A stretch of DNA of 64,000 nt, taken from the NCBI GenBank assembly GCA_965224245.1, contig OZ245046.1:1568001-1632000 (forward strand). Reading direction: 5' to 3'. The DNA is from Candidatus Eiseniibacteriota bacterium (GTDB lineage Bacteria > Eisenbacteria > RBG-16-71-46 > CAZAMP01). The first letter of the stretch is position 1. Each line of letters starts with the position of its first letter. The notes below the pieces were generated by a model. It was not told where the DNA came from. It was given only the letters and a program-made list of their open reading frames with translations, and searched no databases. This document shows, piece by piece, positions 1,184-61,607 of this stretch. The position numbers and the translations under genes are program-made.

Positions 1184-1185
1184 GT

Positions 1186-1251
1186 GTCGATCCCGGGGCG
1201 GCGCTCGCGCCGCCCCGGTCGACCCGGTCGCCCCCGGGCGCGCCGGCGACC
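1186..1251 (+). terminator. Tandem GC-rich hairpins right after hcp (3' stabiliser or attenuator, no U-tract)
   Basis: CCGGGGCGGCGC (1193-1204)/GCGCCGCCCCGG (1207-1218) inverted repeat flanked by GTCGA/TCGAC, then GGTCGCC...GGCGACC. Confidence 0.5.
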
Positions 1252-1283
1252 AACCGTCACTCTCTAACCCGGTAGTCACAATC

Positions 1284-9832: not shown

Positions 9833-9851
9833 CCTCAACCCGAGGACCTCC

Positions 9852-35227: not shown

Positions 35228-35268
35228 TGATCAATGCCTTTACACGACCTGTCAGCTTATTTTACACT
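35228..35268 (+). promoter_or_regulatory. AT-rich regulatory patch upstream of the polysaccharide operon
   Basis: TTTACAC twice (35239, 35261); TGT-N11-ACA at 35250-35266; possible TTTACA-N18-TACACT promoter. Confidence 0.5.
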
Positions 35269-35473
35269 CATCGTTTCCAGGCCACGGCCGACAACTAGAA
35301 CTGGTGGAGTAGGCTGGCGCCTCACCGTGCGCCCAGCCGGCGCCGCCCGAACCAGGAGTCGGACCGACGACGCGGCGGACGGGACCGCTACCGCCGGCGG
35401 GCGTCTTCGGGGTGGGTGGAACGAATGTGCCCAAGGTCCGACATCTCGGGTTCGCGACAAGGAGCCGTCTTCC

Positions 35474-41380: not shown

Positions 41381-42246
41381 CCGTCCACGACGCACCACGA
41401 CCCGTCGACGCGTCGTTCGCCCGGCCTGCGACACGAACCCTCGTTCAGGGGGCCGTGCTGCTGGTGCTGATGGTGGCGATCTACCGCACGACGTTCGTGA
41501 CGCTGTGGAACGTCTGGATGGACAACCCCAACTACTCGCACGGCGTCCTGATGCCGCTGGTGTCGGGGTTTCTGGTCTGGCTCCGACGCCACGAGCTCAT
41601 GCGCCTGCCGTCGTCGCCGTCGTCGTGGGGGCTCGTGGTCATCGTGGCCGCGCTCGGGCTGCAGCTCGCGGGTCTCCGGGGCGACGTGCTGATCTTCCAG
41701 GGCGACTCGTTCGTGCTTCTGCTCGGTGGGCTCGTCCTCCACTTCGGCGGGTGGGCGTGGGCGCGCGTGTTTGCCTTTCCCGTCGGGTATCTCCTGTTCA
41801 TGGTCCCGTTTCTCCCGATCTTCGAGACGCAGGTCAGCTTCCGCCTGAGGCAGCTCGCCGCGTCCGGCGCGATCCGGATCAGCGACGCGCTCGGGGTGCT
41901 TGTACACAAGCCGGGCGCCGGGACGATCCTCTACCTGCAGGACGGGGGACAGCTGGAGGTCGCCAACGCGTGCAGCGGCATGCAATCGCTGATCTCGCTC
42001 CTGGCCCTGGGAGCCCTCTTCGCGTACTTCGCCAGGGTGGGCCCGGTTCGCCGGATGCTCCTGTTCCTGGCGTCGGTCCCGATCGCGCTGGGTGTGAACG
42101 TCCTCCGGATCACGTCGCTGTGCGTGGTGGGGACGGCGGCCGGCGTCGAGACGGCGACCGGTCTCTTCCACGACGTGATCGGGTTCGTGCTGTTCGGAAT
42201 CGCGTTCGTCACGCTCCTCATGGTCAGGAGGGTGCTGCGATGCTGA
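41377..42246 (+). CDS. Exosortase (EpsH family)
   Basis: YSHG.LMP, LEVANACSG, NVLRI, FHD (Cys/Arg/His triad). Confidence 0.92.
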   Translation: MTVHDAPRPVDASFARPATRTLVQGAVLLVLMVAIYRTTFVTLWNVWMDNPNYSHGVLMPLVSGFLVWLRRHELMRLPSSPSSWGLVVIVAALGLQLAGLRGDVLIFQGDSFVLLLGGLVLHFGGWAWARVFAFPVGYLLFMVPFLPIFETQVSFRLRQLAASGAIRISDALGVLVHKPGAGTILYLQDGGQLEVANACSGMQSLISLLALGALFAYFARVGPVRRMLLFLASVPIALGVNVLRITSLCVVGTAAGVETATGLFHDVIGFVLFGIAFVTLLMVRRVLRC

Positions 42247-42908
42247 GGGGTAGCTTTCTCGCGGTGGCCGCGCTGTTCGTCCTGACCGCCGCCGCCGTGA
42301 ACCTCACGCGGCCACGCGCACTCGGCCGGAGCGACCTCGCGTCGTGCCCGACGTCCATCGCCGGCTTCACCGGTCGCGACACCGAGATACGCCAGGCCGT
42401 TCTGGAAGAGCTCGATCCCACCGAGATGATCGTTCGCGAGTACACCGGTGACCACCTATACGACACCGTGTGGCTGGTGATCGAGTACTTCGAGAACGCG
42501 CGCTACGGCGCGCACGATCCCGAGGTTTGCTACATCTCCCAGGGATGGGAGATTCTCGACGAGCCGTCGATGATGCTGTCGCGTCCCGACGGAATCGCCC
42601 CGCTGGAAGCCCGGGTCTTCCGGGTACGGCGGCCGGGCGGCGACCGTCTCGTGGCCTACTGGTGGTTCATCGACGGCGACCAGGCCATGACGGACCAGAG
42701 GCGTTTTCTCGACACCATGGCGATCCAGGGGATCCTGAAAGGATCCAGCTACGGCACCTTCGTGCGCGTGTCGACGCGCGCCTGGCCCGGTGACGACGAG
42801 GCCCGCTTGCGGCTCGGGACGTTCGCACAGGAGGTACTGGACGTGCTCCCGTCTCTGTACGACGACGTCGGCGCGCAGACGCCCGAAGGGGAGGATCCCA
42901 GAGGATGA
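42240..42908 (+). CDS. EpsI family exosortase-associated protein
   Basis: HDPEVCY.SQGW, VAYWW, FVRVS. Confidence 0.85.
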   Translation: MLRGSFLAVAALFVLTAAAVNLTRPRALGRSDLASCPTSIAGFTGRDTEIRQAVLEELDPTEMIVREYTGDHLYDTVWLVIEYFENARYGAHDPEVCYISQGWEILDEPSMMLSRPDGIAPLEARVFRVRRPGGDRLVAYWWFIDGDQAMTDQRRFLDTMAIQGILKGSSYGTFVRVSTRAWPGDDEARLRLGTFAQEVLDVLPSLYDDVGAQTPEGEDPRG

Positions 42909-43723
42909 TGAACCAGCTCAATCTCGCGTTGCTGGCGCTGCTGGAGGGCGTGAAGAGCTTCTTCGAGATGCGGCTGTGGGGCCCCCTGGTGCTCCTCGTG
43001 GCGGCCCAGCTGGTGCTGGTGCTCGCCCTGGTGAGCTGGCACCAGCCCGGGCTGGTGACCGTCATGGCGCCGTTGATCCGGGCGATGACGGGGGAGGTCG
43101 GCCTGCACTATCCGCAGTTCTATCTGGCGCTCTCGTCGATCTTCTCGCTGACCAGCCCGGTGGTGAACTTCTTCCTGGGCGCGTACCTGTGGGGCGTGGC
43201 GGTGGTGCTGGTGGCGAATCACTTCGAGAGCACCGGGCAACGGCCGTGGGGGCTGGCGCGGGCGCGCTACGGGCATCTCCTAGTGGCCGAGGTGCCCGCG
43301 ATCGTGCTCCTGACCGTGTTCTACGCCGCGTCGCGCAGCCTGTTGGGGATGGATCTCGGGGGGAACAAGCTCCGTGCGGTGCTGTACGGGCTGCCGATGG
43401 TGTTCGTGTTCTTCCAGTCGGCGTTCCTGATGGCGCCGATGTACGTGCTGTTCGACCGTCTGGACGGCGCGAGGGCCCTCGGACGGAGCATCGCGTTCTG
43501 GCGGCGCAACATCCCGGCGCTGTTCATCATCATGATCGTGCCGCAGGCGCTGCACTTCCCGTCGCAGTGGGTGTTTCGCCACAACGTCAGCGTGGTCTCG
43601 CGGTTCTCGCCCGAGACGCTCGGGTTCGTGCTGGCCGGTGACGTCGTCTTCTATCTGTTCACGTACTTCCTGCTCGTGGTGGCAGCCACGGTGACGTACT
43701 TCGCCAGACGGAGGGCCGTGTGA
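42905..43723 (+). CDS. Hypothetical polytopic membrane protein
   Basis: About 6 hydrophobic segments; overlaps both neighbours by 4 nt. Confidence 0.75.
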   Translation: MMNQLNLALLALLEGVKSFFEMRLWGPLVLLVAAQLVLVLALVSWHQPGLVTVMAPLIRAMTGEVGLHYPQFYLALSSIFSLTSPVVNFFLGAYLWGVAVVLVANHFESTGQRPWGLARARYGHLLVAEVPAIVLLTVFYAASRSLLGMDLGGNKLRAVLYGLPMVFVFFQSAFLMAPMYVLFDRLDGARALGRSIAFWRRNIPALFIIMIVPQALHFPSQWVFRHNVSVVSRFSPETLGFVLAGDVVFYLFTYFLLVVAATVTYFARRRAV

Positions 43724-48679: not shown

Positions 48680-50095
48680 ATGGCCTCACACCTGGATCGC
48701 TATCACGACACGACGCTCGCCCAGAAGGCGCTGCTCGTCCTGGTCGCCGTGGTGCTGGGTCTCGTCGCGGCCACGCTGGCGCTGACCTTTCAGGTGAAGA
48801 TCGTCATCGGTCTCATCGCCGGGCTGTGTTTCGGTGCCCTAATCCTGTTGAAGCCCCTCGTCGGCATGGTGTTCCTCCTGATCACGATGCCGGTGCTCGA
48901 GATCTTCCCGTCCGACTTCTTCGGGTCGGGGCTCTTGAACCCGACGAACTTGATTCTGGCCACGATCACGGTCTCGGTCACGCTCTATCGGACGTTCGTG
49001 CTGAAGATCGGCATCTCCAGGCGAAGCTGGGTGGCTCCGATCCTCGTGTACGGGATCGTGCTCACGTTCTCGATTGGGTTGAACCTGATCAAGGGAGAGG
49101 CCTCGGTGGCGGCGGTGGCCGGGCTCACGCGAACCTATCTGAACGGGGCGTACCTGTACTTCCTGACCACCAACTGCATCGAGAGCGAGCGGGATGCCCG
49201 TTACATCTTCTACACCGTGCTGTTCACGGTCATCTTCGTGGCGCTGTGGGGGCTGTTCGAGTATCGAAACGACATCCTCGCCGGCATGGCTTCCTCGCGC
49301 GTCCGGATCAGTGGCCGCGTGGGTCAGCCGAACTCGTTCGGGGCGTTTCTGTGCTACTACCTGCCGTTCCTGATCGGCGCGCTCCGCGTCCGGAACGTGC
49401 CCAGGCTCTGGCGGCTCTACGCGCTGGGGGGGACGGTGGCCGTGCTCTTCGCCCTCATGTTCACCCAGTCGCGGGGCGCCTACCTGGGGCTCGTGTGTTC
49501 GCTCGTGTTTCTCGCGGTGGCGGTCAATCGGCGACTGCTCCTGGTGATGCTGGTGGCCGGGCTCCTGCATCCGCTGTGGCTCCCTTCGCAGGTGGTCGAG
49601 CGGATCCAGTACACGTTCGATGGCCAGGGTGCGTACGGCGTGGACAGCTCCTCGGAGTCGCGTATCAAGTTCTACAAGGCGGGCGTCCGGCTCTGGACCG
49701 AGAGTCCGGTCTGGGGTCACGGGTTCGGTGGCTTCTCACGCATGTCGGCCGAGAGAGGAATCACCGAGACGCGCCGCGCCGCACACAGCCTCTACATCCA
49801 GATGCTGGTGGACACGGGGCTGGTGGGGCTGACCGCCATCTTCTACATGTGGGGACATCTCTGGCGCCGGTCGTGGCGCCTGTGGAAGACGGCGACGGAT
49901 CCGTCTCGGAGAATCTTCGGCGAGTGCTTTCTCGCGTGCCTGGTGGCCATCGTGATGGTCAACATCTTCGGCATCCGTTTCTACAATTTCATGGAGATCG
50001 GGTACTTCTGGGCGCTGTGCGCGGTGCTGGTCTTCTACACCGAGCCGGCCCGCGACCGGATTCGTGCCGGGAGCGAGGCGAGGAGAGCCGCGTGA
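48680..50095 (+). CDS. O-antigen ligase / Wzy-like membrane protein
   Basis: More than 10 TM; QPN.FG, TQSRGAY, P.WGHG.G.F, AHSLYIQ.L.DTGLVG. Confidence 0.85.
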   Translation: MASHLDRYHDTTLAQKALLVLVAVVLGLVAATLALTFQVKIVIGLIAGLCFGALILLKPLVGMVFLLITMPVLEIFPSDFFGSGLLNPTNLILATITVSVTLYRTFVLKIGISRRSWVAPILVYGIVLTFSIGLNLIKGEASVAAVAGLTRTYLNGAYLYFLTTNCIESERDARYIFYTVLFTVIFVALWGLFEYRNDILAGMASSRVRISGRVGQPNSFGAFLCYYLPFLIGALRVRNVPRLWRLYALGGTVAVLFALMFTQSRGAYLGLVCSLVFLAVAVNRRLLLVMLVAGLLHPLWLPSQVVERIQYTFDGQGAYGVDSSSESRIKFYKAGVRLWTESPVWGHGFGGFSRMSAERGITETRRAAHSLYIQMLVDTGLVGLTAIFYMWGHLWRRSWRLWKTATDPSRRIFGECFLACLVAIVMVNIFGIRFYNFMEIGYFWALCAVLVFYTEPARDRIRAGSEARRAA

Positions 50096-51354
50096 GAATC
50101 CTCTACCTGGCTCAATTCTTCAATCGTCCCGACGAGGCCGGGGCCGGGCGACACTACGCGTTCGCCAGCGAATGGGTACGCCGGGGGCACGACGTCACCG
50201 TGATCACCGGGCAGCAGAACTACCGCACCGGCGCGACGCGACGCGCGAGCCTGCGCCCGTACGTCGAGACCGTGGACGGCGTCCGGGTCGTTCGGACCTA
50301 CGTGTACACCGGCTACCGGGGCAGCTTCCGCCGCCGGTACCTGAACTTCGCGTCGTTCACCGCCTCGTCGGTGGTGGCGGCGCTCTCGGAGCGCCGCCCC
50401 GACGTGGTCTTCGCATCGTCGCCGCCGTTGACGGTGGGCGTGGCCGGGGAGTGGGTTTCCCGGCTCAGGCGGGTGCCGCTCGTGGCCGACATCCGCGACC
50501 TGTGGCCGGAATCGGCGGTCGCCCTCGGCGTCGTCTCCGATGGTCGCTTCGTGCGCCTCGCGTCCGGGACGGCCCGCCGGGTCTACCGGCGGGCGTCGCG
50601 CGTGGTCGGGGTCACCGGTGGCATCGTCGAGGGCCTGGTGGCCGCGGGGGTGCCGGAGGGCAAGATCGTCAAGATCACCAACGGCGTGGACGTCGGCCTG
50701 TACGAGTCACCGGCGGCGCCGGATTCACTGCGCACGGAGCTGGGACTGGACGATCGCTTTCTATGCGTCTACGTGGGGGGAATGGGCATTCTCCACGACG
50801 TGGGGACGGTCGTCGAGGCTGCGGCGCGGCTCCGGGACGTCCCCGTTCATTTCCTCCTGATCGGACAGGGTGACGACCGCCCACGCCTCGAGGCCCGGCT
50901 GGATCGGGAGGGCATCACGAACGTGACGTTCCGCGATCCGATCCCCAAGGAGCGCGTGCCGGGGGTCATCGCGAGCGCCGATTGCGCGGTCTACTCGCTC
51001 AGGGACGATCCGTTCTTCCGGGGGACCTTTCCCAACAAGAACTTCGACTATCTGGCCGCGGCGTGCCCGGTGGTGCTGGCGGTCGAGGGGGAGTCGGCCG
51101 AGCTCGTCCGCGCCGCGGGGGCGGGATTCGTCACGCCGCCGGGATCGGGAGCGGGGCTCGCCGAGGGGATTCGCCGGATGCTGGCGCTGCGGCCCGCCGA
51201 GCGCCAGCAGATGGGTGAGCGTGGGCGGGCGCACGTTCTGGCCAACTACCGTCGCGTGGATCTGGCGGCGAGGCTCGAGACGATCCTCCAGGACGTCGTG
51301 GGCGATCGCACGGTCGATCCGGGACGCGAGGACGGAAGACGAGGGGTTGCATGA
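50092..51354 (+). CDS. GT4 glycosyltransferase (WbuB-like)
   Basis: RGHDVTVI, SSPPL, IRDLWPES, ITNGVD, PNK.FDYLA. Confidence 0.9.
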   Translation: MRILYLAQFFNRPDEAGAGRHYAFASEWVRRGHDVTVITGQQNYRTGATRRASLRPYVETVDGVRVVRTYVYTGYRGSFRRRYLNFASFTASSVVAALSERRPDVVFASSPPLTVGVAGEWVSRLRRVPLVADIRDLWPESAVALGVVSDGRFVRLASGTARRVYRRASRVVGVTGGIVEGLVAAGVPEGKIVKITNGVDVGLYESPAAPDSLRTELGLDDRFLCVYVGGMGILHDVGTVVEAAARLRDVPVHFLLIGQGDDRPRLEARLDREGITNVTFRDPIPKERVPGVIASADCAVYSLRDDPFFRGTFPNKNFDYLAAACPVVLAVEGESAELVRAAGAGFVTPPGSGAGLAEGIRRMLALRPAERQQMGERGRAHVLANYRRVDLAARLETILQDVVGDRTVDPGREDGRRGVA

Positions 51355-52490
51355 GCATCGATGACCGTACGTTCCAGATCAGCCGTCCGGTGTGTCCCGA
51401 CGTCGACGCCCTCGTGCCCGAGCTCCGCGAGATCCTGGAGTCGGGTCAGCTGACGAACGGTCGCCACGTGCGCCGGCTGGAAGAGGCCGTCTCGGCGTAC
51501 ACGGGGGCCGAGGTGGTCGCGCTGGCGTCGAACACATCGGGCATGATGCTGAGCTGGAGCGCGTTCGACCTGGCCGGCGAGGTGCTGGTCCCGGCGTTCA
51601 CGTTCCCCGCCACCGCGCACGCTCTTCGCTGGAACGGGCTCGAGCCGGTGCTCGTGGATTGCGACCGCGAGACGTTCAACATCGACCCGGACGACGTCGA
51701 GCGGAAGTGCACGTCGCGCACGGTCGGGATCGCGCCGGTGTACATCTTCGGGAATGCGCCGGACTGGGAGCGACTCGGTGCGATCGCGCGCCGCCACGAT
51801 CTTCGGGTGGTCTCGGATGCGGCCCATGCGTTCGGCACGACCATCCACGGTCGACACGCCGGTCACTTCGGGGACGTCGAGATCTTCTCCCTGGCCCCCA
51901 CGAAGATCCTGACCACGGCCGAGGGCGGGCTTGCGATCACGCGTGACGCCGAGCTGGCCGACGTCCTCAGGCGAACGCGGAACTACGGCAATCCCGGCGA
52001 TTACAACTGCCGCGAGCTGGGTCTGAACGCGCGGATGACCGAGGTGCACGCACTTCTCGGGCTGCACGGCCTGGCCGGTCACGAGGCGCAGCTCGAGCAC
52101 CGGCAGCGCCTGGCCGCCCGTTATCGCGAGCTCCTCGGCGACGTGCCGGGCATCGCGTTCCAGTCGATCGGGGCGGGCGTGCGCACAACCTACAACTACT
52201 TCGCGATCGTGGTCGAGCCGGGGGCGTTCGGTCTCACCAACCATGAGCTGAAGGCGTTTTTGGCCGGGCACGGCGTCGAGAGCAAGGTGTACTTCCATCC
52301 GCCCATTCACCGGCAGACGCTGTACGCGTCGCTGGCCGGCGCGGAGGTCCCCAATACCGAGTGGCTGTGCGAGCGGATCCTGTGCATCCCGCTGACCGGT
52401 CACCTCGACGAGGCCGACGTCGAGACCATCGCCGGACTCGTCGTCGATGCGCGGCGGACGGCGCGCTCCCGAGAGGACGCGGTGACGTGA
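51351..52490 (+). CDS. DegT/DnrJ/EryC1/StrS sugar aminotransferase
   Basis: PAFTF.AT, DAAHAFG, FSL.PTK...AEGG, RNYG. Confidence 0.92.
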   Translation: MSIDDRTFQISRPVCPDVDALVPELREILESGQLTNGRHVRRLEEAVSAYTGAEVVALASNTSGMMLSWSAFDLAGEVLVPAFTFPATAHALRWNGLEPVLVDCDRETFNIDPDDVERKCTSRTVGIAPVYIFGNAPDWERLGAIARRHDLRVVSDAAHAFGTTIHGRHAGHFGDVEIFSLAPTKILTTAEGGLAITRDAELADVLRRTRNYGNPGDYNCRELGLNARMTEVHALLGLHGLAGHEAQLEHRQRLAARYRELLGDVPGIAFQSIGAGVRTTYNYFAIVVEPGAFGLTNHELKAFLAGHGVESKVYFHPPIHRQTLYASLAGAEVPNTEWLCERILCIPLTGHLDEADVETIAGLVVDARRTARSREDAVT

Positions 52491-53140
52491 AGCACGAGGG
52501 CCTCTATGCGCGGGCGCTGAAGCCCGCCCTCGATCGTCTGGTCGCGCTCGCGATCGTCGTGATCGGTGCGTTGCCCGGTCTGGCGCTGGCGCTCGCGGTG
52601 CGCCTGGACTCGCGCGGACCGGTCTTCTATCGACAGGTACGTGTGGGGAAGAACGGTCGTGTGTTCCAGATGCTGAAGTTCCGGTCCATGGTGGTGGGAG
52701 CCGAGCACCAGGGGGCGGGCATCCGCGTCGAGAGGAACGACGCCCGGATCACCCGCGTCGGGAGGCTCCTCCGCCGGACGAGCCTCGACGAGCTGCCGCA
52801 GGTCTTCAACATCCTGCGGGGCGAGATGAGCGTCGTCGGACCCCGGCCGGGGCTCGAGTTTCAGGTGGCGAAGTACACGCCGGAGCAGCGCCGCCGCCTG
52901 CTGGTGGCACCGGGCATCACGGGATGGGCCCAGGTGAACGGCCGGAACGCGATTCCGTGGGACGAGCGCATCCGGCGCGACCTCGAGTACGTGGATCGGA
53001 TCTCGCCGGCGCTCGACCTCGAGATCCTCTGGCGGACGATCGGCACCGTCCTGAACCCGCGGGATCAGATCGCGGCCAAGGCGTTCTTCGGCGAGCGGCC
53101 GGGTGACGATCGCCCTACCGCGTCGGGGGACCGCGCATGA
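52487..53140 (+). CDS. PglC-like monotopic phosphoglycosyl transferase
   Basis: [48 protein letters not shown]. Confidence 0.93.
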
Positions 53141-54306
53141 GCCCGATCCGGACGATACGTCGGGCCGCGGCGCTCCTGGCCTCATCGGCCGCGCTCGTGG
53201 TGCCGGCCACCGCGGATCCGACCGTGGCCGAGCCGATGCCCGCGGCGCGAGACGTGCAAGTGGATCCGGACTTCGACCCCGGGCACCTGTCGCCGCTGGC
53301 CCGGACGTGGTACGACCGCGTGGTCGAGTCCATCGAGGCCAGCCGCGAGACGATCGAGACGCGCGCCGCGTCCGACGATCTCTACCTCCTGGGCCGGTTC
53401 GTCGGCGACTATCAGGCCGCGCTGGTGGCGGCGCTACGGGCCACCGGAGATCGGCGGTTCCTCGATCGAGTGTACGAGGTGGCCGAGATCGCGCGCGCGA
53501 GCCTCCGGGACGCCTGGGACGACGGCACGACCGACGGTCACCTGAACTGGCGGATGCGGACGGCGGACGCGCCGCCGTACCACGGCAACGACCGGCACCA
53601 GATGGACGAGGCGATGGTGCACGGCAACGTCGCGCTGTGGGCGGCCGTGCTCGACGCGAACCGGGACGTGGACGCCCGCTTCGCGGAGGCGGCCGACTTC
53701 TGGCGCGACTATCTCGAGAACCACTTCCTGGCCAAGTGGCGCGTGCGAGCCGGCGGTGACCGCGTCGCGAGCTGGGACGGACCGCGCGGGTTCTACAAGC
53801 GCTTCGTTCACCCCCGGATCAATCAGCTCCGGGCGGCCCACTACCTCTGGCGCCTCACGGGGGACGGGTTCTACCGGGAGCGGGAGCGGAGCGTCTCGGC
53901 GGACGTGCTGGGTGCGATCGTCGAGAACCCGACGCACCCGGGTGCCGTGCGCTGGAAGCACCAGGTATCCGGCAAGGACGAGGGCTGGCAGAAGCTGAAC
54001 TACGCGCAGTATGCGCTGCGCGTGATGATCGAGCTGTACGAGGAGCAGGTCGACGGCTTCGACGAGTGGCTGATGACGCGTCTCGCGACGACGGTTCGCG
54101 ACGTCGTGTTCGCCGAGGCGGATGAGCACCGGATGACCGCCCGCATCTCGGGCGAGGGCAGCACGGGACTTCGCGTGTTCGCGCTCAGCGCGTACGCGGC
54201 CTGGGATCCCACCGGACGCATCCTCAGGATCGCCGATGCGACCTACAAGCCCGGATCGTACGGCCTGTCCACGGCCGCGTACGCGTTGTGGGCCCTCTGC
54301 CCATGA
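53137..54306 (+). CDS. Exported hypothetical protein, likely helical (alpha/alpha-barrel-like)
   Basis: Signal peptide ..PATA-D; repeated ATGDRRFL / LTGDGFY helix-turn motifs; aromatic-rich. Confidence 0.6.
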   Translation: MSPIRTIRRAAALLASSAALVVPATADPTVAEPMPAARDVQVDPDFDPGHLSPLARTWYDRVVESIEASRETIETRAASDDLYLLGRFVGDYQAALVAALRATGDRRFLDRVYEVAEIARASLRDAWDDGTTDGHLNWRMRTADAPPYHGNDRHQMDEAMVHGNVALWAAVLDANRDVDARFAEAADFWRDYLENHFLAKWRVRAGGDRVASWDGPRGFYKRFVHPRINQLRAAHYLWRLTGDGFYRERERSVSADVLGAIVENPTHPGAVRWKHQVSGKDEGWQKLNYAQYALRVMIELYEEQVDGFDEWLMTRLATTVRDVVFAEADEHRMTARISGEGSTGLRVFALSAYAAWDPTGRILRIADATYKPGSYGLSTAAYALWALCP

Positions 54307-54435
54307 CGCCCACGGTCGCGAGGACGGGACGCGCCGCGCGGCGGCGCCGGAGACGGCGACGACACGCCCTCACGCCCCGTGCGTGGCGGCGATCACTCGA
54401 CGCGCCTCGGCGCGCGTGAAACGAGGAAGGACGAC

Positions 54436-56112
54436 GTGGCAAACCGACCTGACGGCACCGGCGCCCGATCGGCCGAGGTGACCGGCGTACGGCGCATCCA
54501 GATCTACGACACGACGCTGCGCGACGGAACGCAGGGGCTCGGCTTCAACCTCTCGGTCGGCCAGAAGCTCGAGGTGCTCAAGCAGCTCGATCGCATGGGT
54601 GTGGACTACGTCGAGGGAGGCTACCCGCTCTCCAACCCGAAGGACGCGGCGTTCTTCGCCGAGGCTCGCGACGTCCGGCTGAACCGGACGAAGCTCGCCG
54701 CGTTCGGCATGACGCGGCGAAAGGGCGTCTCCGCGGCCGAGGACACCGGAATGCGGGCGCTCGTGGCGGCCGAGACGCCGGTGGTCACCGTGGTCGGCAA
54801 GACCTGGGACTTCCACGTGCGGGAGGTCCTGCGGGTGAGCCTGGACGAGAACCTGGCCATGATCCGCGACTCTCTCGGGTTCCTGGCCGACGCGGGGCGC
54901 GAGGTCATCTACGACGCGGAGCACTTCTTCGACGGCTACCGGGAGAATCCCACCTATGCGCTCGAGACGCTCCGGGCGGCCCTCGACGGACGGGCCACCA
55001 CGCTCGTCCTCTGCGATACGAACGGCGGCACGATGCCGTCGGTGCTCGGGGACATCGTGGGCGAGGTCCGGCGCACGTTCCCCGACGTCGCGATCGGGAT
55101 CCACCCGCACAACGACTCGGCGCTGGCGGTGGCCAACGCGCTCGAGGCGGTGCTCCGGGGCGCCTCTCAGGTGCAGGGCACGATCAACGGCGTCGGCGAG
55201 CGCTGCGGCAACGTCGATCTGATCCCGGTCGTGGCGAACCTGAGCCTGAAGCTCGGGTTCGACGTCCTGGGGGGCGCGCCCGACGTCTCGCGTCTCACCG
55301 AGCTCAGCCGCTTCGTGAACCACATCGCCGATCGGGACCCCGAGCGCAACCAGGCCTACGTCGGCGAGTCCGCGTTCGCGCACAAGGGCGGCATGCACGT
55401 CCACGCCGTTCAGCGCAACGTCGCCACCTACGAGCACGTGCCGCCCGAGTCGGTGGGCAACGAGCGGCGCATTCTGGTCAGTGAGCTGAGTGGCGTCTCG
55501 AACATCCAGGACCGGATCGCGACGCTGATGGGGCGGCGGGAGCTCGATCGCGATACGCTACGGATGATCCTCGATGCGGTCAACCGCCTCGAGAAAGAGG
55601 GGTACGTGTTCGAGGAGGCCGAGGCCAGCTTCGAGCTGCTCGTGCGCCGCCTGATCGGCGAGGAACACCGTCACTTCCGGCTGGATCACTACCAGGCCAG
55701 CGTGTTCAAGATGGAGGGCGCTCACCCGGTCTCGACGGGGCTCGTCCGCGCACGTGTCGACGGCGAGGTCGTCCGGGGCACGTCCGAGGGCGAGGATCCG
55801 CTCTCGGCGCTGGACGGCGCGCTCCGGCGCGCGCTCGAGACGCACTTCCCCGAGCTGGACACGGTCGACTGCATCGATCGGAAGTTCCGCGCGATCGACA
55901 AGCCCGGCACGCGCTCGTGCCCGGTTCGTGTGCTGACCACGTTCGCCTGCGGGACGCGTCACTGGACCACGGTGGCCATCGGGGAGAACGTGATCGATGC
56001 CGGCCTCCAGTGTCTGGTAGAGGGCTTCGAGTGGCATCTCCTTCACGCGAACGAGATGCTGGACGGTGACCTGGCAGGCACGCCGGGCCGTGCGGAAGGG
56101 AGCACCCGGTGA
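54436..56112 (+). CDS. cimA: Citramalate synthase (DRE-TIM, CimA family)
   Basis: YDTTLRDG.QG, EGG.P.SNPKD, GK.WD.HV, DAEHFFDG, CDTNGG, H.HND, GERCGN, AHKGGMH. Confidence 0.88.
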   Translation: MANRPDGTGARSAEVTGVRRIQIYDTTLRDGTQGLGFNLSVGQKLEVLKQLDRMGVDYVEGGYPLSNPKDAAFFAEARDVRLNRTKLAAFGMTRRKGVSAAEDTGMRALVAAETPVVTVVGKTWDFHVREVLRVSLDENLAMIRDSLGFLADAGREVIYDAEHFFDGYRENPTYALETLRAALDGRATTLVLCDTNGGTMPSVLGDIVGEVRRTFPDVAIGIHPHNDSALAVANALEAVLRGASQVQGTINGVGERCGNVDLIPVVANLSLKLGFDVLGGAPDVSRLTELSRFVNHIADRDPERNQAYVGESAFAHKGGMHVHAVQRNVATYEHVPPESVGNERRILVSELSGVSNIQDRIATLMGRRELDRDTLRMILDAVNRLEKEGYVFEEAEASFELLVRRLIGEEHRHFRLDHYQASVFKMEGAHPVSTGLVRARVDGEVVRGTSEGEDPLSALDGALRRALETHFPELDTVDCIDRKFRAIDKPGTRSCPVRVLTTFACGTRHWTTVAIGENVIDAGLQCLVEGFEWHLLHANEMLDGDLAGTPGRAEGSTR

Positions 56113-56756
56113 AGTTCCTCATGATCGGGGCCGGACAGACCGGCCGGCTCCTGGCCGAGATCGTTCACCGGATCCCCGGGCTCGAGTGTGTCGGCATGCT
56201 CGACCGGGATCCGGCGCTGCACGGACAGTCGTTCTACGGCGTCTCCGTGCTGGGCGGGGAGGAGCTCCTGGAGGCGCACGTGGGCAAGGTGGAGGGGGCG
56301 CTGCCGGTCGTGGGCGACCTGACGGCCCGTCTTCGCCTGTTTAGACGGGTGCAGGCCATGGGGTATCGCGTGCCGACGATCATCGAGCCCTCGGTGGTGG
56401 CCGCCTCGGACGTGCAGTACGGCGCGGGCGTCTTCATCTCGATGAACACGGCGATCCTGACCAACGTCCGCATCGGCGACTACGGGTTCATCGGAACCGG
56501 TGTCAACGTGCTCCACGACACGACGATCGGCTCGAACTGCGTCGTCGGCGGCGGCACGGTCATCGGGGCGTCGGTCACGGTGGGCAACAACGTGGCATTC
56601 GGGACCGGCGTCACGGTGGCCTCGGGTCACAAGCGAATCGGCGACAACGCGAACGTCGCCGCCGGCTCGGTCATTCTGAAGGACGTGCCCGACAACGCGT
56701 TCGTGCTCGGCAACCCGGCGCGCGTGATCGGCTTCAACCCGTCCGTGGAGCTGTAG
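56109..56756 (+). CDS. PglD/NeuD-family sugar acyltransferase (left-handed beta-helix)
   Basis: IGAG..G Rossmann-like N-terminus, hexapeptide repeats with VLHD, GSV..KDVP....GNPAR. Confidence 0.88.
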   Translation: MKFLMIGAGQTGRLLAEIVHRIPGLECVGMLDRDPALHGQSFYGVSVLGGEELLEAHVGKVEGALPVVGDLTARLRLFRRVQAMGYRVPTIIEPSVVAASDVQYGAGVFISMNTAILTNVRIGDYGFIGTGVNVLHDTTIGSNCVVGGGTVIGASVTVGNNVAFGTGVTVASGHKRIGDNANVAAGSVILKDVPDNAFVLGNPARVIGFNPSVEL

Positions 56757-56765
56757 GAGGACGCC

Positions 56766-58256
56766 GTGAGCTCGATCTTTCAGGACATCCTCGGTCGCAC
56801 CGACGGGCTCGATCGCCCGGCGTTCCACGGCGACCGTGCGTTCACCCACGGGGCGTTCCTCGACCACGTGGCGCGCTTCGTCGGCGCGTTCGAGCGGGCC
56901 GCCATCACGCCGGGCGATCGCGTCGCGCTGTGCGTGGATCAAGGGGCCGACTACGCGGCCGCGCTGGTGGCGCTGCGCCGCGTGGGCGCGGTCGCGGTGC
57001 TGATGGCCCCCGACTGGACGGATGCCGAGAAGGACCGCGTGGCCGACGTGGCCGAGGTCCGCTTCGCGGTGGCCGACATGCCGCTTCTGGGCACACGCGC
57101 CGTCGCGTCGGCCGAGAACGTGAGCGGCGACGCGACGCTCCTCGCGTTCGACGTCGTGCCGACCGAGCCGAGCGGTCCCGACGACGCGGTGCTGATCTTC
57201 ACGTCCGGTACGACCGGGGCTCCGAAGGGCGTGATTCTGACCGAGTCGTGCATCTCGGCCAACGTGCGAGCCGTGTCGCGCTACCTGTCGCTGGGTCCCG
57301 CCGACGGCTCACCGGTGTTCACTCCGCCGTGCTACGCCTACTCGCTCTCGCTGAACCTGACCCATCTATGGTCGGGCGCGGCCATGCTGCCGGTGCCGGC
57401 GGGGCTGATGTTCCCGATCGAGATCCTTCAGGGCATCGCGCAGCATCGGTTGACCGGCGTCTCCGCCACGCCGACCGCGTTCCGGCTCCTGGCCCAGGTC
57501 GACCCGGACGCACCGGTGGATCTCACCTCGGTGCGCTACGTGATGACCGGCGGACAGTTCCTCGATCTCCGCCTCGTGCGGACACTGGGCGAGCTGTTCC
57601 CGAAGGCCGACGTCGTGAACATGTACGGGTGCTCGGAGAACTCGCCCCGCATCAGCTATCTCGTCGTGGACGGCCAGCACGGGCTGGACGACGCGGGCTA
57701 CTACGCGGTGGGCCGCGCCGTCGACGGCACGCGGATCGAGATCCTCGACGGCGAGGGCCGTCCGGTGGCGCCGGGCACGACCGGCGAGGTGGTGATCTCG
57801 GGGACGAGCCTGATGCGCGGGTACTGGCGGGATCCGGAGAGCACCGCCGAGCGCCTCGTGGACGGGCGGTTCCACACGCGTGACCTCGGATATCTGGACG
57901 CCGAGGGGCTGTTGCACCTGACCGGCCGCGCCACCAGCATCATCAACATCGGCAACGAGAAGGTGTCGCCCGAGGAGGTCGAGAAGGTGCTGGCCGGGGT
58001 CGAGGGTGTCCGCGAGGCGGCCGTCTACGGCGCGCCCGATCCGATGCTGGGCGAGAGCGTGCACGCCCTAGTGGTGCTGGAGCCCGGGGCACGGGTGCAG
58101 GTGACCGACCTCCAGCGTCACTGCCGTCGCGTGGTGTCCGGGTACAAGGTGCCCAGACGGATCGACATCGTGGCCACGCTTCCGCGCACGTTGTACGGCA
58201 AGATCGATCGCACGCGTCTGACCGAGATGGCTCGCGAGAACGCGACCATCGGCTGA
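56766..58256 (+). CDS. Class I adenylate-forming enzyme (acyl-CoA/acyl-ACP ligase)
   Basis: FTSGTTG.PKGV, YGCSE, FHTRDLG, KVSPEEVE, YKVP, LPRT.YGKI. Confidence 0.9.
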   Translation: MSSIFQDILGRTDGLDRPAFHGDRAFTHGAFLDHVARFVGAFERAAITPGDRVALCVDQGADYAAALVALRRVGAVAVLMAPDWTDAEKDRVADVAEVRFAVADMPLLGTRAVASAENVSGDATLLAFDVVPTEPSGPDDAVLIFTSGTTGAPKGVILTESCISANVRAVSRYLSLGPADGSPVFTPPCYAYSLSLNLTHLWSGAAMLPVPAGLMFPIEILQGIAQHRLTGVSATPTAFRLLAQVDPDAPVDLTSVRYVMTGGQFLDLRLVRTLGELFPKADVVNMYGCSENSPRISYLVVDGQHGLDDAGYYAVGRAVDGTRIEILDGEGRPVAPGTTGEVVISGTSLMRGYWRDPESTAERLVDGRFHTRDLGYLDAEGLLHLTGRATSIINIGNEKVSPEEVEKVLAGVEGVREAAVYGAPDPMLGESVHALVVLEPGARVQVTDLQRHCRRVVSGYKVPRRIDIVATLPRTLYGKIDRTRLTEMARENATIG

Positions 58257-58314
58257 CGTCGGGCTCGGGAAACGGCTCTCGGCGTCCCGCCGCCGGGCGG
58301 GAGGAGGTTCCACG

Positions 58315-58557
58315 GTGAGTGTTCGCGACGACGTCCTTGGGTATCTGAAGCGCATCAACCCGACCGTCATCGAGCGGATGCCCGAGCCCGAGGGCCTCAA
58401 GCTCCGGCGGGTGCTGGACTCGCTCGACATGATGGACTTCATCACGCATCTCGAGCAGAGCTACTCGATCAAGGTAACCGACGAGGACGTCCTGACGCGG
58501 AACTTCGAGACGGTGGGGTCCGTGATCCAGTTCGTGGAGTCGAAGACGACCTCGTGA
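58315..58557 (+). CDS. Acyl carrier protein
   Basis: 80 aa, LDSLDMM..I..LE..Y.I...DEDV...NF.TV; GGAGGAGG RBS. Confidence 0.88.
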   Translation: MSVRDDVLGYLKRINPTVIERMPEPEGLKLRRVLDSLDMMDFITHLEQSYSIKVTDEDVLTRNFETVGSVIQFVESKTTS

Positions 58558-58666
58558 TCGTTCGAGGCCCCGACCTCGACCCGCGGCTCCGAGGCGGGCT
58601 CCGTCCCGTAGCGGAACGCCCCTCCGCCGGATGACGAAGGGGCGTCTTGCGGACGGTGCGGTCGAG

Positions 58667-60334
58667 CTACTGATCCTGGACGGCCGGCTCCTGCGCGCTG
58701 CCCTCCTGCACCACGTCCAGGAACGCCTCGATCTCTCCGTTGGCGAGCAGCGTCGCCTCGTAGAAGTGCGTGAGCGCCTCGCGCACCCCCGGGTCGTTGT
58801 CGATGATCACCTGATAGCGCCGGTTGGGTCCCCAGACGTTGCTGGCGATCTCGACCCGGAGCCAGTGATCGACGAACGGTCGCTCTGCGGTGATGGTGTC
58901 CGCCGTGAGGTCCTCGTTCTCGGGGGCTCGCCCGAGCACGTAGCTCGTGAACTGGCCGAACATCTCGTCGCTGGTCTTCCAGGAGGCGAGGAAGTCCTCG
59001 AACGATCCCAGATCGGGATGCTCGTTGCCGATGGTCTCGTTGGCGAAGTTGAAGAAGTAGCGGTCCTGCGGGTTCAGGAGAGCGGCCTGCGTGTCGTTCA
59101 GCGAGTAGTCGGGATCGACGACCACGTCGGGCATGATGCCGCCGCCGCCGTAGACGGGGCGCCCGGCGGCCGTCATGTAGGTCGGACGCTCGTCGATCTC
59201 GTGGCCTTCCTCGACGAGCTCGGCCGCGCCGGCGTCGGTGCCGGCCTCGGTCAGGTACTCGTGACGGTCCTTGCCCTTGTACGGGCGCTGGATCAGCCGG
59301 CCGCTCGGGGTGTAGTACTTGGCCACGGTCAACAGGAGGGCGCCGCCGCCGCGGATGGGGAACTGGCGCTGAACGAGCCCCTTGCCGAACGACGTGGTGC
59401 CCACGACCAGCCCGCGATCCCAGTCCTGGACGGCGCCCGAGACGATCTCGGACGCGGACGCGCTGCCCTGATCGATCATCACGATCAGGGGATAGCGCGG
59501 GTGCGTGGAGCCCTCGGTCGAGAAGTACTCCTCGGACGAGCCGCGAATGCGACCCTTGGTGTAGACGACGAGCTTGCCGCCCGACACGAACTTGTCGGCC
59601 ACGGCGATGGCCTGGTTGAGGTAGCCGCCGGTGTTGCCGCGCAGGTCCAGGACGAGCCTCTCCATGCCCTGATCGGCCAGCTCGTTGATCGCCTCCTCGA
59701 GCTCGTCGGCGGTGTGCGCCGAGAACCGGTTGGCCCGGATGAAGCCCGTGTCCGCGCTCAGCATGAAGTAGTGAGAGACCGACTTGATGGCGATCTTGGA
59801 TCGCTTGATCTCGACGTGGATGAGCGCGTCCTCGCCCGGCCTCTCGATGCCGACCTCGACGACGGATCCCTCCGGTCCGCGCAGACGCTCCATGACCTCG
59901 GGATTGGTGATGCCGATGGCGCTCTCGCCCTCGATCTCGACGATGCGGTCGCCGGGCTTGATGCCGAGGTCCCACGACGGTGAGCCCTCGATCGGCGAGA
60001 TGACGGTCAGCACGTCGTCGACGATCTCGAACGAGATGCCGATGCCCGAGTACTCGCCGGTGTTGAGCTCCTGCATGCGGCGGTTGGCGTCGGGCCGGAG
60101 GTAGTTCGTATGGGGATCGAGGTCCTTCAGCATGCCCTCGATCGCGTCGTTGATCATGGCCTCGGTGTCGACCGTGTCGACGTAGTTGTGCTTGACCAGG
60201 GTCAGGATCTTGTTGAAGCGCTGGATCTGCTCGAGCAGGTCGGAGCTGTCCGCGCGGGCGATCGACGGCGGCACCAGAGCCAGCGTCGTGGTGATCAGCA
60301 GCAGTGCGAGCGATCGGGTCCGGGGCGTCGTCAT
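58667..60334 (-). CDS. S41 C-terminal processing protease (PDZ)
   Basis: LDPHT.Y, GIGI, LRGPEGS, LDLRGN.GG, SASASEIV.GA.QDWDR, SFGKG; alternative start at 60346. Confidence 0.93.
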   Translation of the reverse strand: MTTPRTRSLALLLITTTLALVPPSIARADSSDLLEQIQRFNKILTLVKHNYVDTVDTEAMINDAIEGMLKDLDPHTNYLRPDANRRMQELNTGEYSGIGISFEIVDDVLTVISPIEGSPSWDLGIKPGDRIVEIEGESAIGITNPEVMERLRGPEGSVVEVGIERPGEDALIHVEIKRSKIAIKSVSHYFMLSADTGFIRANRFSAHTADELEEAINELADQGMERLVLDLRGNTGGYLNQAIAVADKFVSGGKLVVYTKGRIRGSSEEYFSTEGSTHPRYPLIVMIDQGSASASEIVSGAVQDWDRGLVVGTTSFGKGLVQRQFPIRGGGALLLTVAKYYTPSGRLIQRPYKGKDRHEYLTEAGTDAGAAELVEEGHEIDERPTYMTAAGRPVYGGGGIMPDVVVDPDYSLNDTQAALLNPQDRYFFNFANETIGNEHPDLGSFEDFLASWKTSDEMFGQFTSYVLGRAPENEDLTADTITAERPFVDHWLRVEIASNVWGPNRRYQVIIDNDPGVREALTHFYEATLLANGEIEAFLDVVQEGSAQEPAVQDQ

Positions 60335-60614
60335 CGGCCGCTCCATCAGGTGGGAGTCTCGTCGTTTCGGGGGCTCGGTCGCGGCCCTCGTCGTGTCCGG
60401 AGGCTGGGCCGCCGAAGGTCGCGTGCGAGGGGTCGCCGACTCCGCGCCGACGGTCACCTCGGCGGGTGCGCGGCGCGTCGACCGTAACTACCGGCGGACT
60501 ATACCACAGGTTCCGTTAAACTCTATGTCGGCAGGCTCTTGCGCGCTCATGACGGTTTACCTACCCTCGGCGATCGGTTTCTGTGTTCGAACACGGCGAA
60601 GGGATGGGACGGGC

Positions 60615-61607
60615 GTGGAGATCTTCCTGACCGGCGGCACCGGATACCTCGGAGCGCGGCTGGCGCAAACCCTTGTGGCCAGAGGGCATCGGTTGCGCGC
60701 GCTGTACCGCTCCCCCGAGCGGGCGCCCCGCGCCGGTGCCTCGGTGCTGCCCGTTCGAGGGGATCTCGAGCGCCCGGACGCGTTGCGCGACGCGATCGAC
60801 GGTGTGGATGCAATCGTGCACACCGCCGCGATGGTCCAGAGCTACGTGCGCGATCCCGACCGGATGCGCCGGGTGAACGTGGACGCCGTCGAGCGCGTGG
60901 TTCAGCTCGGCCGCGAGCTCGGTGTTCCGCGTATCGTGTACACGTCGAGCTTCATGGCGCTGGGGCCCAGCTCGTCGCACCCGCGCACCGAGGACGATCC
61001 GTACGCGCGCGAGACCTTCCACAATCACTACGAACGCACGAAGTACCTCGGCGACCAGGTCGCGCGTCGCCTGCAGTCCGAGGGGGCACCGCTGACGATC
61101 CTGTACCCGACGGTCATCTTCGGACCGGGCGGGCTCACGCAGGGCAACTTCGTGGGCAAGATCGTGCGCGACTTCGTGAACCGGAAGCTCCCGGGACGGC
61201 TCGGACGCGGCGACGCGCTGTGGAACTACGCGTTCGTGACCGACGTGGTCGACGCGCATCTGCTGGCGCTGGAGCACGCACCACCGGGATCGCGATACAT
61301 CATCGGCGGTGACAACATCACGCTGGACGGGTTCATCGCCACGCTCGAGGAGGTCTCGGGCGTCCCCGCGCCCACGCGACGCGTGCCCCGGGCCGCCGCC
61401 AAGGTGATCGCCGCGCTGATGGAGGCCAAGTGCGCCGTCCTGGGCGGGCAGCCCGATCTGACGCGCGAGGTCGTCGACGTGTACTACCGGGACTGGGCGT
61501 TCTCCTCGGACCGGGCCATGCACGACCTGGGGTACCGGCCGCGCCCGTTCCGGGATGCGCTGTCCGACACCGTGGACTGGGCGCGCGCGAGCGGGGCGTC
61601 CGCGTGA
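60615..61607 (+). CDS. NAD-dependent epimerase/dehydratase (HpnA/DFR-like)
   Basis: TGGTGYLG, H.AA, YTSS, YERTK, VTDV..AH. Confidence 0.88.
   Translation: MEIFLTGGTGYLGARLAQTLVARGHRLRALYRSPERAPRAGASVLPVRGDLERPDALRDAIDGVDAIVHTAAMVQSYVRDPDRMRRVNVDAVERVVQLGRELGVPRIVYTSSFMALGPSSSHPRTEDDPYARETFHNHYERTKYLGDQVARRLQSEGAPLTILYPTVIFGPGGLTQGNFVGKIVRDFVNRKLPGRLGRGDALWNYAFVTDVVDAHLLALEHAPPGSRYIIGGDNITLDGFIATLEEVSGVPAPTRRVPRAAAKVIAALMEAKCAVLGGQPDLTREVVDVYYRDWAFSSDRAMHDLGYRPRPFRDALSDTVDWARASGASA

Follow-up and report, generated by a model that had tools for sequence, protein, structure and literature searches.

We analysed a 64,000-nucleotide stretch of a Candidatus Eiseniibacteriota genome (contig OZ245046.1, positions 1,568,001 to 1,632,000; the whole stretch is called the window below) with a G+C content of ~70%. 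Our subject is a cassette of four adjacent genes at positions 54436-58557, which may direct the synthesis of a short organic acid, its loading onto a dedicated acyl carrier protein and its transfer to an amino sugar. The cassette consists of the following genes.

54436-56112, plus strand: CimA, a protein of the citramalate synthase type with a TIM-barrel catalytic domain and a diverged LeuA_dimer regulatory domain (TIGR00977, 598.4 bits against a cut-off of 450)

56109-56756, plus strand: AcT, a PglD/PerB/VioB-like left-handed beta-helix N-acyltransferase (TIGR03570, 155.5 bits against a cut-off of 160.8; Hexapep, 50.7 bits)

56766-58256, plus strand: Lig, an ANL adenylate-forming ligase, predicted to be an acid--ACP ligase (AMP-binding, 200.2 bits; AMP-binding_C, 62.6 bits)

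58315-58557, plus strand: ACP, a stand-alone acyl carrier protein (PP-binding, 24 bits against a cut-off of 20.8)

An earlier interpretation of the window, made from its letters alone (the sequence-only reading), had described four tightly linked genes at the close of a polysaccharide cluster, and the open reading frames, the GTGA overlap and the 9-nucleotide spacer were all verified. The open frame of CimA spans 54379-56112, and AGGAAGGA precedes the GTG codon at 54436, which is the probable start. The CimA stop and the AcT start overlap in GTGA; the 9 nucleotides between AcT and Lig include GAGGA and lead to the GTG of Lig, and the 58 nucleotides between Lig and ACP contain GGGAGGAGG, followed by the GTG of ACP. 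Both of these spacers carry Shine-Dalgarno-like motifs. Third-position GC in the four frames, all on the plus strand, is 0.86-0.92. A scan of positions 51000-59000 for promoters and terminators returned no site of either kind, a result that carries no information at 70% GC. Together the four genes make up a single self-contained operon, which closes a Wza/Wzc/Wzy polysaccharide locus downstream of genes for a DegT aminotransferase and a PglC-like sugar-phosphate transferase.

The linkage was surveyed across 206 genomes of the phylum, including the window's own genome (G000, 97% complete), with Lig orthologs accepted at E ≤ 1e-80 and the cassette type of CimA at E ≤ 1e-60. Lig was found in 8 of the 206 genomes and the cassette CimA type in 7, all of them among the 8. 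The gene order CimA-AcT-Lig-ACP was confirmed in G013, G050, G052, G041 and G042, at 49-55% identity to the window, and in G013 there is a 4-nucleotide overlap at each of the three cassette junctions. The contig of G054 stops within AcT, and its CimA lies at the end of another contig. In the eighth genome, G006, the order is PglC-ACP-synthase-AcT-Lig. The synthase in this case is a 406-residue LeuA-family protein that is 28% identical to CimA and has no regulatory domain; its best match is the NifV-type homocitrate synthase model (338.5 bits, below the cut-off of 462.9). Because G006 keeps a LeuA-family synthase despite the different gene, the alkylmalate synthase appears to be part of the module even where its gene is exchanged, that is, by non-orthologous replacement. 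Among 40 relatives the cassette CimA type occurs in G013 only. Most cassette genomes lack a short LeuA-like gene that is common in the relatives (G052 has one besides its cassette), and when the loci of this short gene were checked in 28 relatives, cassette partners were present in G006 only.

Beyond the phylum survey, we took the best 80 CimA loci from a genome collection with one genome per species (185,579 species). Seventy-nine of these 80 belong to Planctomycetota and have no partner genes; the remaining one, from Candidatus Eisenbacteria, has AcT, Lig and ACP, and since its values are identical to those of the G041 stretch the two were counted once. A metagenome scan with an AcT alignment revealed one close relative, the 9.3 kb contig L143, which carries in an array PglF, an EpsI-like gene, DegT, GT4, ACP, PglC, CimA (62% identity), AcT (69%) and Lig. 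Protein searches brought up a natural AcT-Lig fusion of 725 residues (P0008), 67% identical to AcT over all 215 of its residues and 57% identical to Lig; such a fusion indicates that AcT and Lig act together. A protein annotated at its source as citramalate synthase (P0128), 64% identical to CimA and from a metagenome-assembled genome labelled Acidobacteriota, has an accession number consecutive with that of the fusion. The best CimA matches (60-76% identity) and the best Lig/AcT matches repeatedly come from sources whose longest contigs are of the same size (41875, 43371, 8528, 5280, 17549 and 112540), and matches of lower identity likewise share contig sizes (16082, 28079 and 6544). These shared source-contig sizes imply that CimA and Lig/AcT are co-located in the protein collection as well. 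The AcT protein search returned at least 41 proteins, a figure to be read with the knowledge that it missed known copies of 51% identity such as that of G013. The neighbourhood search that had been proposed for cimA next to ACP, ligase and PglD genes finds the arrangement kept in at least four families of the phylum, on a metagenome contig and in the Acidobacteriota-labelled assembly. The linkage of the cassette is beyond chance.

The runner-up model for CimA was 2-isopropylmalate synthase (247 bits against a cut-off of 517), and the protein contains HMGL-like (159 bits), HCS_D2 and LeuA_dimer (34.8 bits against 24.9) domains. The motifs TTLRDGTQG and HPHND, with the metal-binding Asp of LRDG and the HxH, are unchanged between the CimAs of G000 and G013. 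In G000 CimA is the sole LeuA-family gene: TBLASTN with CimA and four short LeuA-like proteins matched this locus only, and two leuA models found nothing besides the cassette CimA. Neither leuC nor leuB scored above its cut-off in this genome; ilvD had no match at all, while 14 of 14 control genomes passed the cut-off, and ilvA or threonine dehydratase was not found with two models (best scores 51 and 47 bits). A match to ilvC passes its cut-off (289 bits, C1:3635500-3636432). Matches of the leuC-like, leuB-like and ilvC kinds are confined in this genome to 2.37-5.17 Mb of contig C1, and the window occupies 1.568-1.632 Mb, which bears out the remark of the sequence-only reading that there are no leu or ilv genes nearby. 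On the lysine side, a lysA-like gene came just short of its cut-off (278.8 bits against 297.9). LysX reached 137 bits against 275.6, and on this score the canonical alpha-aminoadipate lysine pathway is unsupported as a user of CimA. A housekeeping role for CimA was rejected, ilvC being the only one to pass among the searches for leuA, leuC, leuB, ilvC, ilvA, ilvD, lysA and LysX. Since neither ilvD nor ilvA was found, a role of the cassette CimA in the isoleucine pathway appears unlikely; the organism is probably auxotrophic for branched-chain amino acids, and its ilvC may serve another role.

A second, housekeeping cimA had been named as something to look for, and none is present. The uniqueness of the gene does not refute a glycan role, because the linkage is conserved and the genome is without an isoleucine/leucine pathway. 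It is nevertheless one of the facts that would fit cimA being a primary-metabolism gene, of the isoleucine pathway or of a fused-homoaconitase pathway, that merely travels with an AcT-Lig-ACP set loading an unrelated acid; the others are the ilvC match, the absence from most cassette genomes of the short LeuA-like gene of most relatives, and a CimA catalytic domain unchanged with respect to housekeeping CimAs. We consider this explanation very unlikely. It has to contend not only with the missing ilvD and ilvA and the sub-threshold leuC and leuB, but also with a CimA type that is missing from 199 of the 206 phylum genomes and found only alongside Lig, with the translational overlap of CimA and AcT, with the substitution of a different synthase in the G006 cassette, with the extra short LeuA-like gene that G052 holds besides its cassette, and with the remodelled regulatory domain described below.

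The evolution of CimA was examined in a maximum likelihood tree of 81 CimAs (7 from cassettes and 74 from planctomycetes) rooted on 4 short LeuA-family proteins. The 7 cassette CimAs form one clade (SH-aLRT 99), on long stem branches, that is nested within the planctomycete sequences and has L072 as its sister (support 96). The window CimA is 48-56% identical to planctomycete CimAs. The tree, whose sample is that of the best-80 list only, suggests a planctomycete-like donor of the cassette CimA. We then compared columns that are at least 93% identical in the 74 planctomycete CimAs, counting a column as changed when its residue was replaced in at least 6 of the 7 cassette CimAs. By this count 1 of 106 columns in the TIM barrel, 0 of 37 in the linker and 12 of 31 in the regulatory domain are changed. 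For 16 cassette-type CimAs the counts were 0 of 143 for catalytic domain and linker together and 11 of 31 for the regulatory domain (Fisher p ~1e-9, with columns treated as independent). The LeuA_dimer domain went undetected in four close homologs of CimA (P0125, P0128, P0130 and P0135). The simplest reading of these sequences is that the chemistry, acetyl-CoA plus pyruvate, would be unchanged and that control by an end product would be altered or lost, a pattern as expected for a biosynthetic enzyme recruited into another pathway.

AcT matches TIGR03570 over its full length (residues 3-205 of 215), a near miss, and PglD_N stands at 22.6 bits against 23.4. Its best solved relative is the perosamine N-acetyltransferase PerB, with PglB and VioB also close. 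In the alignment, the His of the AcT LHD motif falls opposite the catalytic His of PerB, the residue replaced in mutant entry 4eaa, and all 7 cassette copies have this His (H136); in this the transferase agrees with the PglD-type identity that had been proposed for it. In Lig, the P-loop TSGTTGxPKG and the catalytic Lys of the C-terminal YGK are invariant in 9 of 9 sequences. Homologs of Lig include proteins attributed to Phaeospirillum tilakii and to further Alphaproteobacteria. All 11 aligned carrier proteins share the DS-motif Ser of ACP, the site of phosphopantetheine attachment; the best NCBIfam match of ACP is the petrobactin carrier AsbD (37.5 bits, far under the cut-off of 100). A co-fold of the AcT trimer with ACP, from small custom alignments, scored 0.50 (runs of 0.49, 0.53 and 0.50), compared with 0.00 for the best control; contacts agreed between runs at 91% or more and the partner pLDDT was at least 84. 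Among 80 solved complexes, 58 pass the mark applied; among 110 mismatched pairs, 2 do. Passing scores at or below 0.60 came from only 7 of the 80 together with both passing mismatches. The model thus weakly supports docking of ACP on the AcT trimer. Solved complexes of beta-helix acyltransferases of the AcT fold with ACP exist for LpxA and LpxD.

The acceptor of the acyl group may be sought among the products of the genes upstream of the cassette. These and the gene that follows the cassette are listed below in the order of the window.

35231-38122, plus strand: PglF-type NDP-sugar 4,6-dehydratase with a C-terminal Bac_transf domain, in one open frame (Polysacc_synt_2, 373.7 bits, residues 367-649; Bac_transf, 82.5 bits, residues 744-932)

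38035-39102, plus strand: Wza-type exporter (Poly_export and SLBB domains)

39104-41380, plus strand: Wzc-type chain-length/tyrosine-kinase protein (Wzz and AAA_31 domains)

41505-42908, plus strand: EpsI-domain protein (DUF3485, 88 bits; TIGR02914, 56 bits against a cut-off of 42.8)

Between the EpsI-domain gene, with the adjoining gene for a 272-residue protein, and the Wzy_C gene, plus strand: a TPR protein, a histidine kinase and a sigma-54 response regulator (from family searches)

48680-50095, plus strand: Wzy_C (O-antigen polymerase/ligase-like) membrane protein (Wzy_C, 68.6 bits; 9 hydrophobic segments)

51351-52490, plus strand: DegT/PglE-type sugar aminotransferase (DegT_DnrJ_EryC1, 309.6 bits)

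52361-53140 (limits of the open reading frame), plus strand: PglC-like small polyprenyl-phosphate sugar-phosphate transferase (Bac_transf, 210.7 bits)

53137-54306, plus strand: 389-residue secreted protein between PglC and CimA (signal-peptide-like N-terminus)

58667-60457, minus strand: S41 protease, convergent, which ends the cluster (from a family search)

The PglF- and PglE-type enzymes expected upstream are present as the dehydratase at 35231-38122 and the DegT protein at 51351-52490, and the PglF-type gene on L143 is 43% identical to that of the window. The true start of the PglC-like gene is probably downstream of the DegT stop. Of the 8 distinct contexts compared, 5 have DegT and/or PglC-type genes adjoining the cassette, namely those of the window, L143, G041, G042 and G006; G013, whose upstream side ends at a contig end, is scored as not adjacent. 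PglC homologs of 57-59% identity adjoin it in G041, G042, G006 and L143, and a DegT gene flanks it in G041, G042 and L143. The 389-residue protein has no Pfam or NCBIfam match even at E ≤ 1, and no homolog of it was found in the other cassette loci, which places it outside the conserved cassette.

An AcT-Lig-ACP trio without a synthase was identified on two marine metagenome contigs, L146 (904-4222) and L152 (1268-5179), at 25-36% identity to the window genes. Here the trio stands between a gene of the UDP-GlcNAc 2-epimerase type and genes for NeuB, a cytidylyltransferase and DegT, a nonulosonic-acid gene set, and the NeuB and cytidylyltransferase genes follow immediately downstream of it. The small open frames of these trios scored 16.5 and 19.6 bits for PP-binding, below the cut-off of 20.8, but align on the DS motif. 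Ligase motifs common to the window and the two contigs are TSGT..PKG, YG..ENSPR.S, G.EK..P.E.E and YGK.DR. The Arg of the ENSPR motif was considered as a sign of a dicarboxylate substrate and rejected, the same Arg being present in these trios without CimA. The comparison suggests that ligase- and carrier-dependent N-acylation of 4-amino sugars may be a wider family that includes nonulosonic-acid pathways, and that the CimA cassette is a branch of that family bringing its own acid supply.

From these observations we propose the following mechanism. CimA, possibly by origin a planctomycete-type housekeeping enzyme that would have kept its catalytic domain while its feedback domain was remodelled, would join acetyl-CoA and pyruvate to give citramalate. 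Lig would adenylate the citramalate and load it onto the phosphopantetheine arm of the dedicated ACP, and AcT would move the acyl group from ACP to the 4-amino group of a nucleotide-linked (UDP- or NDP-) 4-amino-4,6-dideoxy-hexose that the PglF-type dehydratase and DegT aminotransferase encoded in the locus itself would supply. The PglC-like transferase would then place the sugar on a lipid carrier as the first sugar of the repeat unit, and the Wzy_C, Wzc and Wza proteins would see to the polymerisation and export of that unit. The first three steps are supported by gene identity, synteny, co-occurrence and fusion. We infer the nature of the loaded acid (citramalate), the carboxyl that is activated, the donor (acyl-ACP and not acyl-CoA) and the acceptor (a nucleotide-linked 4-amino sugar). 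We lean, by a small measure, towards the mechanism as a whole, in which newly formed citramalate passes to ACP and ends up in amide linkage to a 4-amino-6-deoxy sugar. The interpretation given in the sequence-only reading is in this respect supported, to the extent that gene content and homology can speak for it, and those of its suggested checks that are computational all turned out favourably. If it is true, the N-citramalyl sugar would be 130 Da heavier and carry one extra negative charge per repeat, and the product of the G006 variant would be an N-homocitryl-like sugar.

Several findings weigh against this mechanism. Some of them concern the acceptor. In family f13 (G013, G050 and G052) the cassette is stand-alone and its linkage to sugar genes is therefore not universal; its neighbours there encode a GTPase, a formyltransferase, M16 peptidases, a phosphate transporter and glycoside hydrolases, and PglC-like genes lie elsewhere in these three genomes, as they do in the cassette-less G001. 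AcT is also just below the cut-off of its NeuD/PglB/VioB family. A cassette alone among unrelated genes, a transferase slightly short of its family and a carrier whose top NCBIfam match is AsbD would suit an acyl-ACP that is made from the CimA product and is destined for an acceptor other than a nucleotide-linked 4-amino sugar. Such an acceptor could be another amine or a hydroxyl (by NeuD-like O-acylation, or on a lipid, polyamine or peptide), and the outcome a small molecule or an envelope modification. This alternative we regard as unlikely, given that the best solved relatives of AcT are the 4-amino-sugar N-acetyltransferases PerB, PglB and VioB, with the catalytic His conserved, that PglC and/or DegT genes adjoin the cassette in the window, L143, G041, G042 and G006, and that the AcT-Lig-ACP trio also lies within nonulosonic-acid loci.

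Other points concern the acid. The nearest solved relatives of Lig are mixed, namely feruloyl-, oxalyl- and malonyl-CoA ligases, nonribosomal peptide synthetase A domains and beta-aminoacyl-ACP synthetases, and an attempt to read the substrate from this list was given up, as it points to no single acid. We also observed in G000 a fused large- and small-subunit homoaconitase-type dehydratase (G000:C1:5164721-5166724; L004:436-2442, minus strand; TIGR00139, 765.9 bits against 529.9), together with two genes like those of isocitrate and isopropylmalate dehydrogenases (IDH/IPMDH-like). The dehydratase occurs, unlinked, in 7 of the 8 cassette genomes, and in 5 of the 6 cassette genomes examined no clear LeuA-family gene besides the cassette synthase is present, other matches remaining under 55 bits. 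This co-presence of the dehydratase with a synthase that is the only clear one of its family in most cassette genomes means that the synthase may have a second role, or that its product may be processed further. By the latter route the logic of the cassette would be the same and the loaded acid would derive from citramalate through the action of unlinked enzymes; citraconate or 3-methylmalate, formed by the homoaconitase-type dehydratase and an IDH/IPMDH-like enzyme, would be examples. However, the dehydratase was found in 26 of the 206 phylum genomes, which includes 19 without a cassette, and was never linked to the cassette, and the conserved module consists of four genes only. We hold a derivative acid to be quite unlikely.

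There is further the matter of economy. CimA-type enzymes hydrolyse the CoA thioester and release free citramalate, and its re-activation with ATP is wasteful. The waste of hydrolysis and re-activation would be avoided if the order were reversed, with Lig loading a small acid such as acetate on ACP and the CimA-type enzyme condensing it with pyruvate to citramalyl-ACP without hydrolysis; ACP-dependent branching by other condensing enzymes is known from polyketide pathways. We know of no LeuA-family enzyme with an ACP-bound donor, however, and none of the 143 conserved catalytic and linker columns differs from those of the CoA-dependent housekeeping CimAs, and a reversed order seems to us most improbable. 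Finally, the pass of the co-fold is weak and may be produced by solved complexes of the LpxA/LpxD type, and the 9 CimAs added to the 7 for the larger column comparison were picked by identity, 3 of the 16 being on short contigs where linkage is not visible.

With these points set against it, the account we put forward, tentatively and a little short of calling it probable, is that a captured planctomycete-like citramalate synthase, freed from amino-acid feedback, feeds the synthesis of an N-citramalyl bacillosamine-type sugar that starts an exopolysaccharide repeat, and that the cassette belongs, as one branch, to a more extensive and so far undescribed AcT-Lig-ACP system by which amino sugars, nonulosonic acids among them, receive N-acyl groups other than acetyl.

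By analogy, the nearest precedent of the cassette would be the O-antigen locus of Vibrio cholerae O1. In the O1 antigen the acid of the tetronate branch presumably ends up as an N-acyl group on perosamine, a 4-amino-6-deoxy sugar, and the RfbL/RfbK tetronate branch was reportedly described by Morona et al. in 1995. The RfbL ligase is proposed to activate 2,4-dihydroxybutanoate, which would then be attached either to CoA or to RfbK, a carrier protein (PMC12208996). Both systems encode an adenylate-forming ligase and a small carrier within a polysaccharide locus and would activate a short hydroxy acid, whereas the tetronate branch is not known to include an alkylmalate synthase and its acid is 2,4-dihydroxybutanoate. 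The resemblance of RfbL and RfbK to Lig and ACP is one of architecture.

For the sugar steps, the template is the di-N-acetylbacillosamine pathway of Campylobacter and Neisseria, in which the roles of PglF, PglE, PglD and PglC are established. This pathway, PerB and VioB have the same enzyme types as the window, namely a 4,6-dehydratase, a DegT protein, a beta-helix N-acyltransferase with a catalytic His and a small PglC-type transferase. Unlike the donor proposed for AcT, though, that of PglD, PerB and VioB is acetyl-CoA, and they have no adjoining ligase, ACP or acid synthase. The cassette CimA is above the equivalog cut-off of TIGR00977 and keeps all the conserved catalytic columns of housekeeping citramalate synthases such as the planctomycete CimAs; it differs from them in its place within an operon for acylation, in the lack of ilvD, ilvA and leuA from its genome, and in the 11 of 31 regulatory columns that are changed, and in some cassette copies a LeuA_dimer domain is no longer recognised. 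The nonulosonic-acid trios of L146 and L152 share the gene order of the cassette but are of low identity to it (25-36%), have no synthase, and have NeuB, cytidylyltransferase and 2-epimerase genes as neighbours. The exosortase-A-associated acyl-CoA ligase TIGR03098 is likewise an AMP-forming ligase and is found in exosortase/PEP-CTERM polysaccharide loci; membership of Lig in this family was rejected (212.5 bits against a cut-off of 592.35). The logic of petrobactin AsbC/D/E, whose AsbD is the weak top match of ACP, is a more distant analogue.

Searches of the open-access literature found no publication that ties citramalate synthase or citramalyl groups to a bacterial glycan, nor one on an ACP-dependent bacillosamine or nonulosonic N-acyltransferase. 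In the open-access literature we likewise found no publication on trios of the L146/L152 type and, among the Eisenbacteria papers listed, none on glycans, the latter as judged by titles and the beginnings of abstracts. This agrees with the statement of the sequence-only reading that it knew of no characterised pathway with this gene set, no report of such a sugar modification having been found in that literature.

Some further features of the window were noted. The frame at 35231-38122 encodes 963 residues with CoA_binding_3, PglF-type dehydratase (373.7 bits) and Bac_transf domains, and its product is possibly a dehydratase-phosphoglycosyltransferase fusion, although a separate PglC-like gene is also in the locus. 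The locus had been called an exosortase glycan locus, a label that is borne out in part only. An EpsI domain is indeed present, with TIGR02914 above its cut-off, whereas no exosortase core was detected at E ≤ 1, either in residues 1-252 of the EpsI-domain protein or in the 272-residue protein encoded next to it (region 41505-43723), neither of which has a family match at that level. The 272-residue protein has ~5 hydrophobic segments and is a membrane protein. It is possible that the EpsI-domain protein is a divergent exosortase fusion, and the exosortase of the locus may be highly divergent or absent. The open frame at 50064-50873 was rejected as a gene, being an Arg/Gly-rich wrong-frame artefact. 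Beyond the cluster, a frame at 60186-61607 (plus strand) encodes an HpnA-like short-chain dehydrogenase/reductase (TIGR03466, 230.9 bits, below the cut-off of 367.65); the matching domain begins at residue 146 and the open frame overlaps the convergent S41 protease gene, the true start probably lies a long way downstream of 60186. Type VI secretion genes open the window, at 1101-3332 and 9480-11390 (plus strand), among them a VgrG-like spike (Phage_GPD, 312.8 bits) and one 636-residue frame that combines the VipA (38.3 bits) and VipB (130.9 bits) domains of the sheath and may encode a fused sheath protein.

The N-acyl groups of amino sugars shape the charge, the antigenicity and the phage and lectin recognition of bacterial surface glycans, and to our knowledge the enzymes that install most non-acetyl N-acyl groups are unknown. 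Ligase- and carrier-dependent N-acylation of amino sugars is the known part of the system proposed here; the novel part is the dedicated, feedback-remodelled citramalate synthase. The hosts are uncultured, and the immediate biological reach of the finding is modest. CimA would nonetheless clearly exemplify how a biosynthetic enzyme under feedback control can be taken into a secondary pathway with divergence of its regulatory domain alone, and a feedback-insensitive citramalate synthase may interest metabolic engineers. The cassette would provide a concrete route with its own acid supply, all four steps of which could be rebuilt in E. coli, and the broader AcT-Lig-ACP family, including its members in nonulosonic-acid loci, could explain other exotic N-acyl groups.

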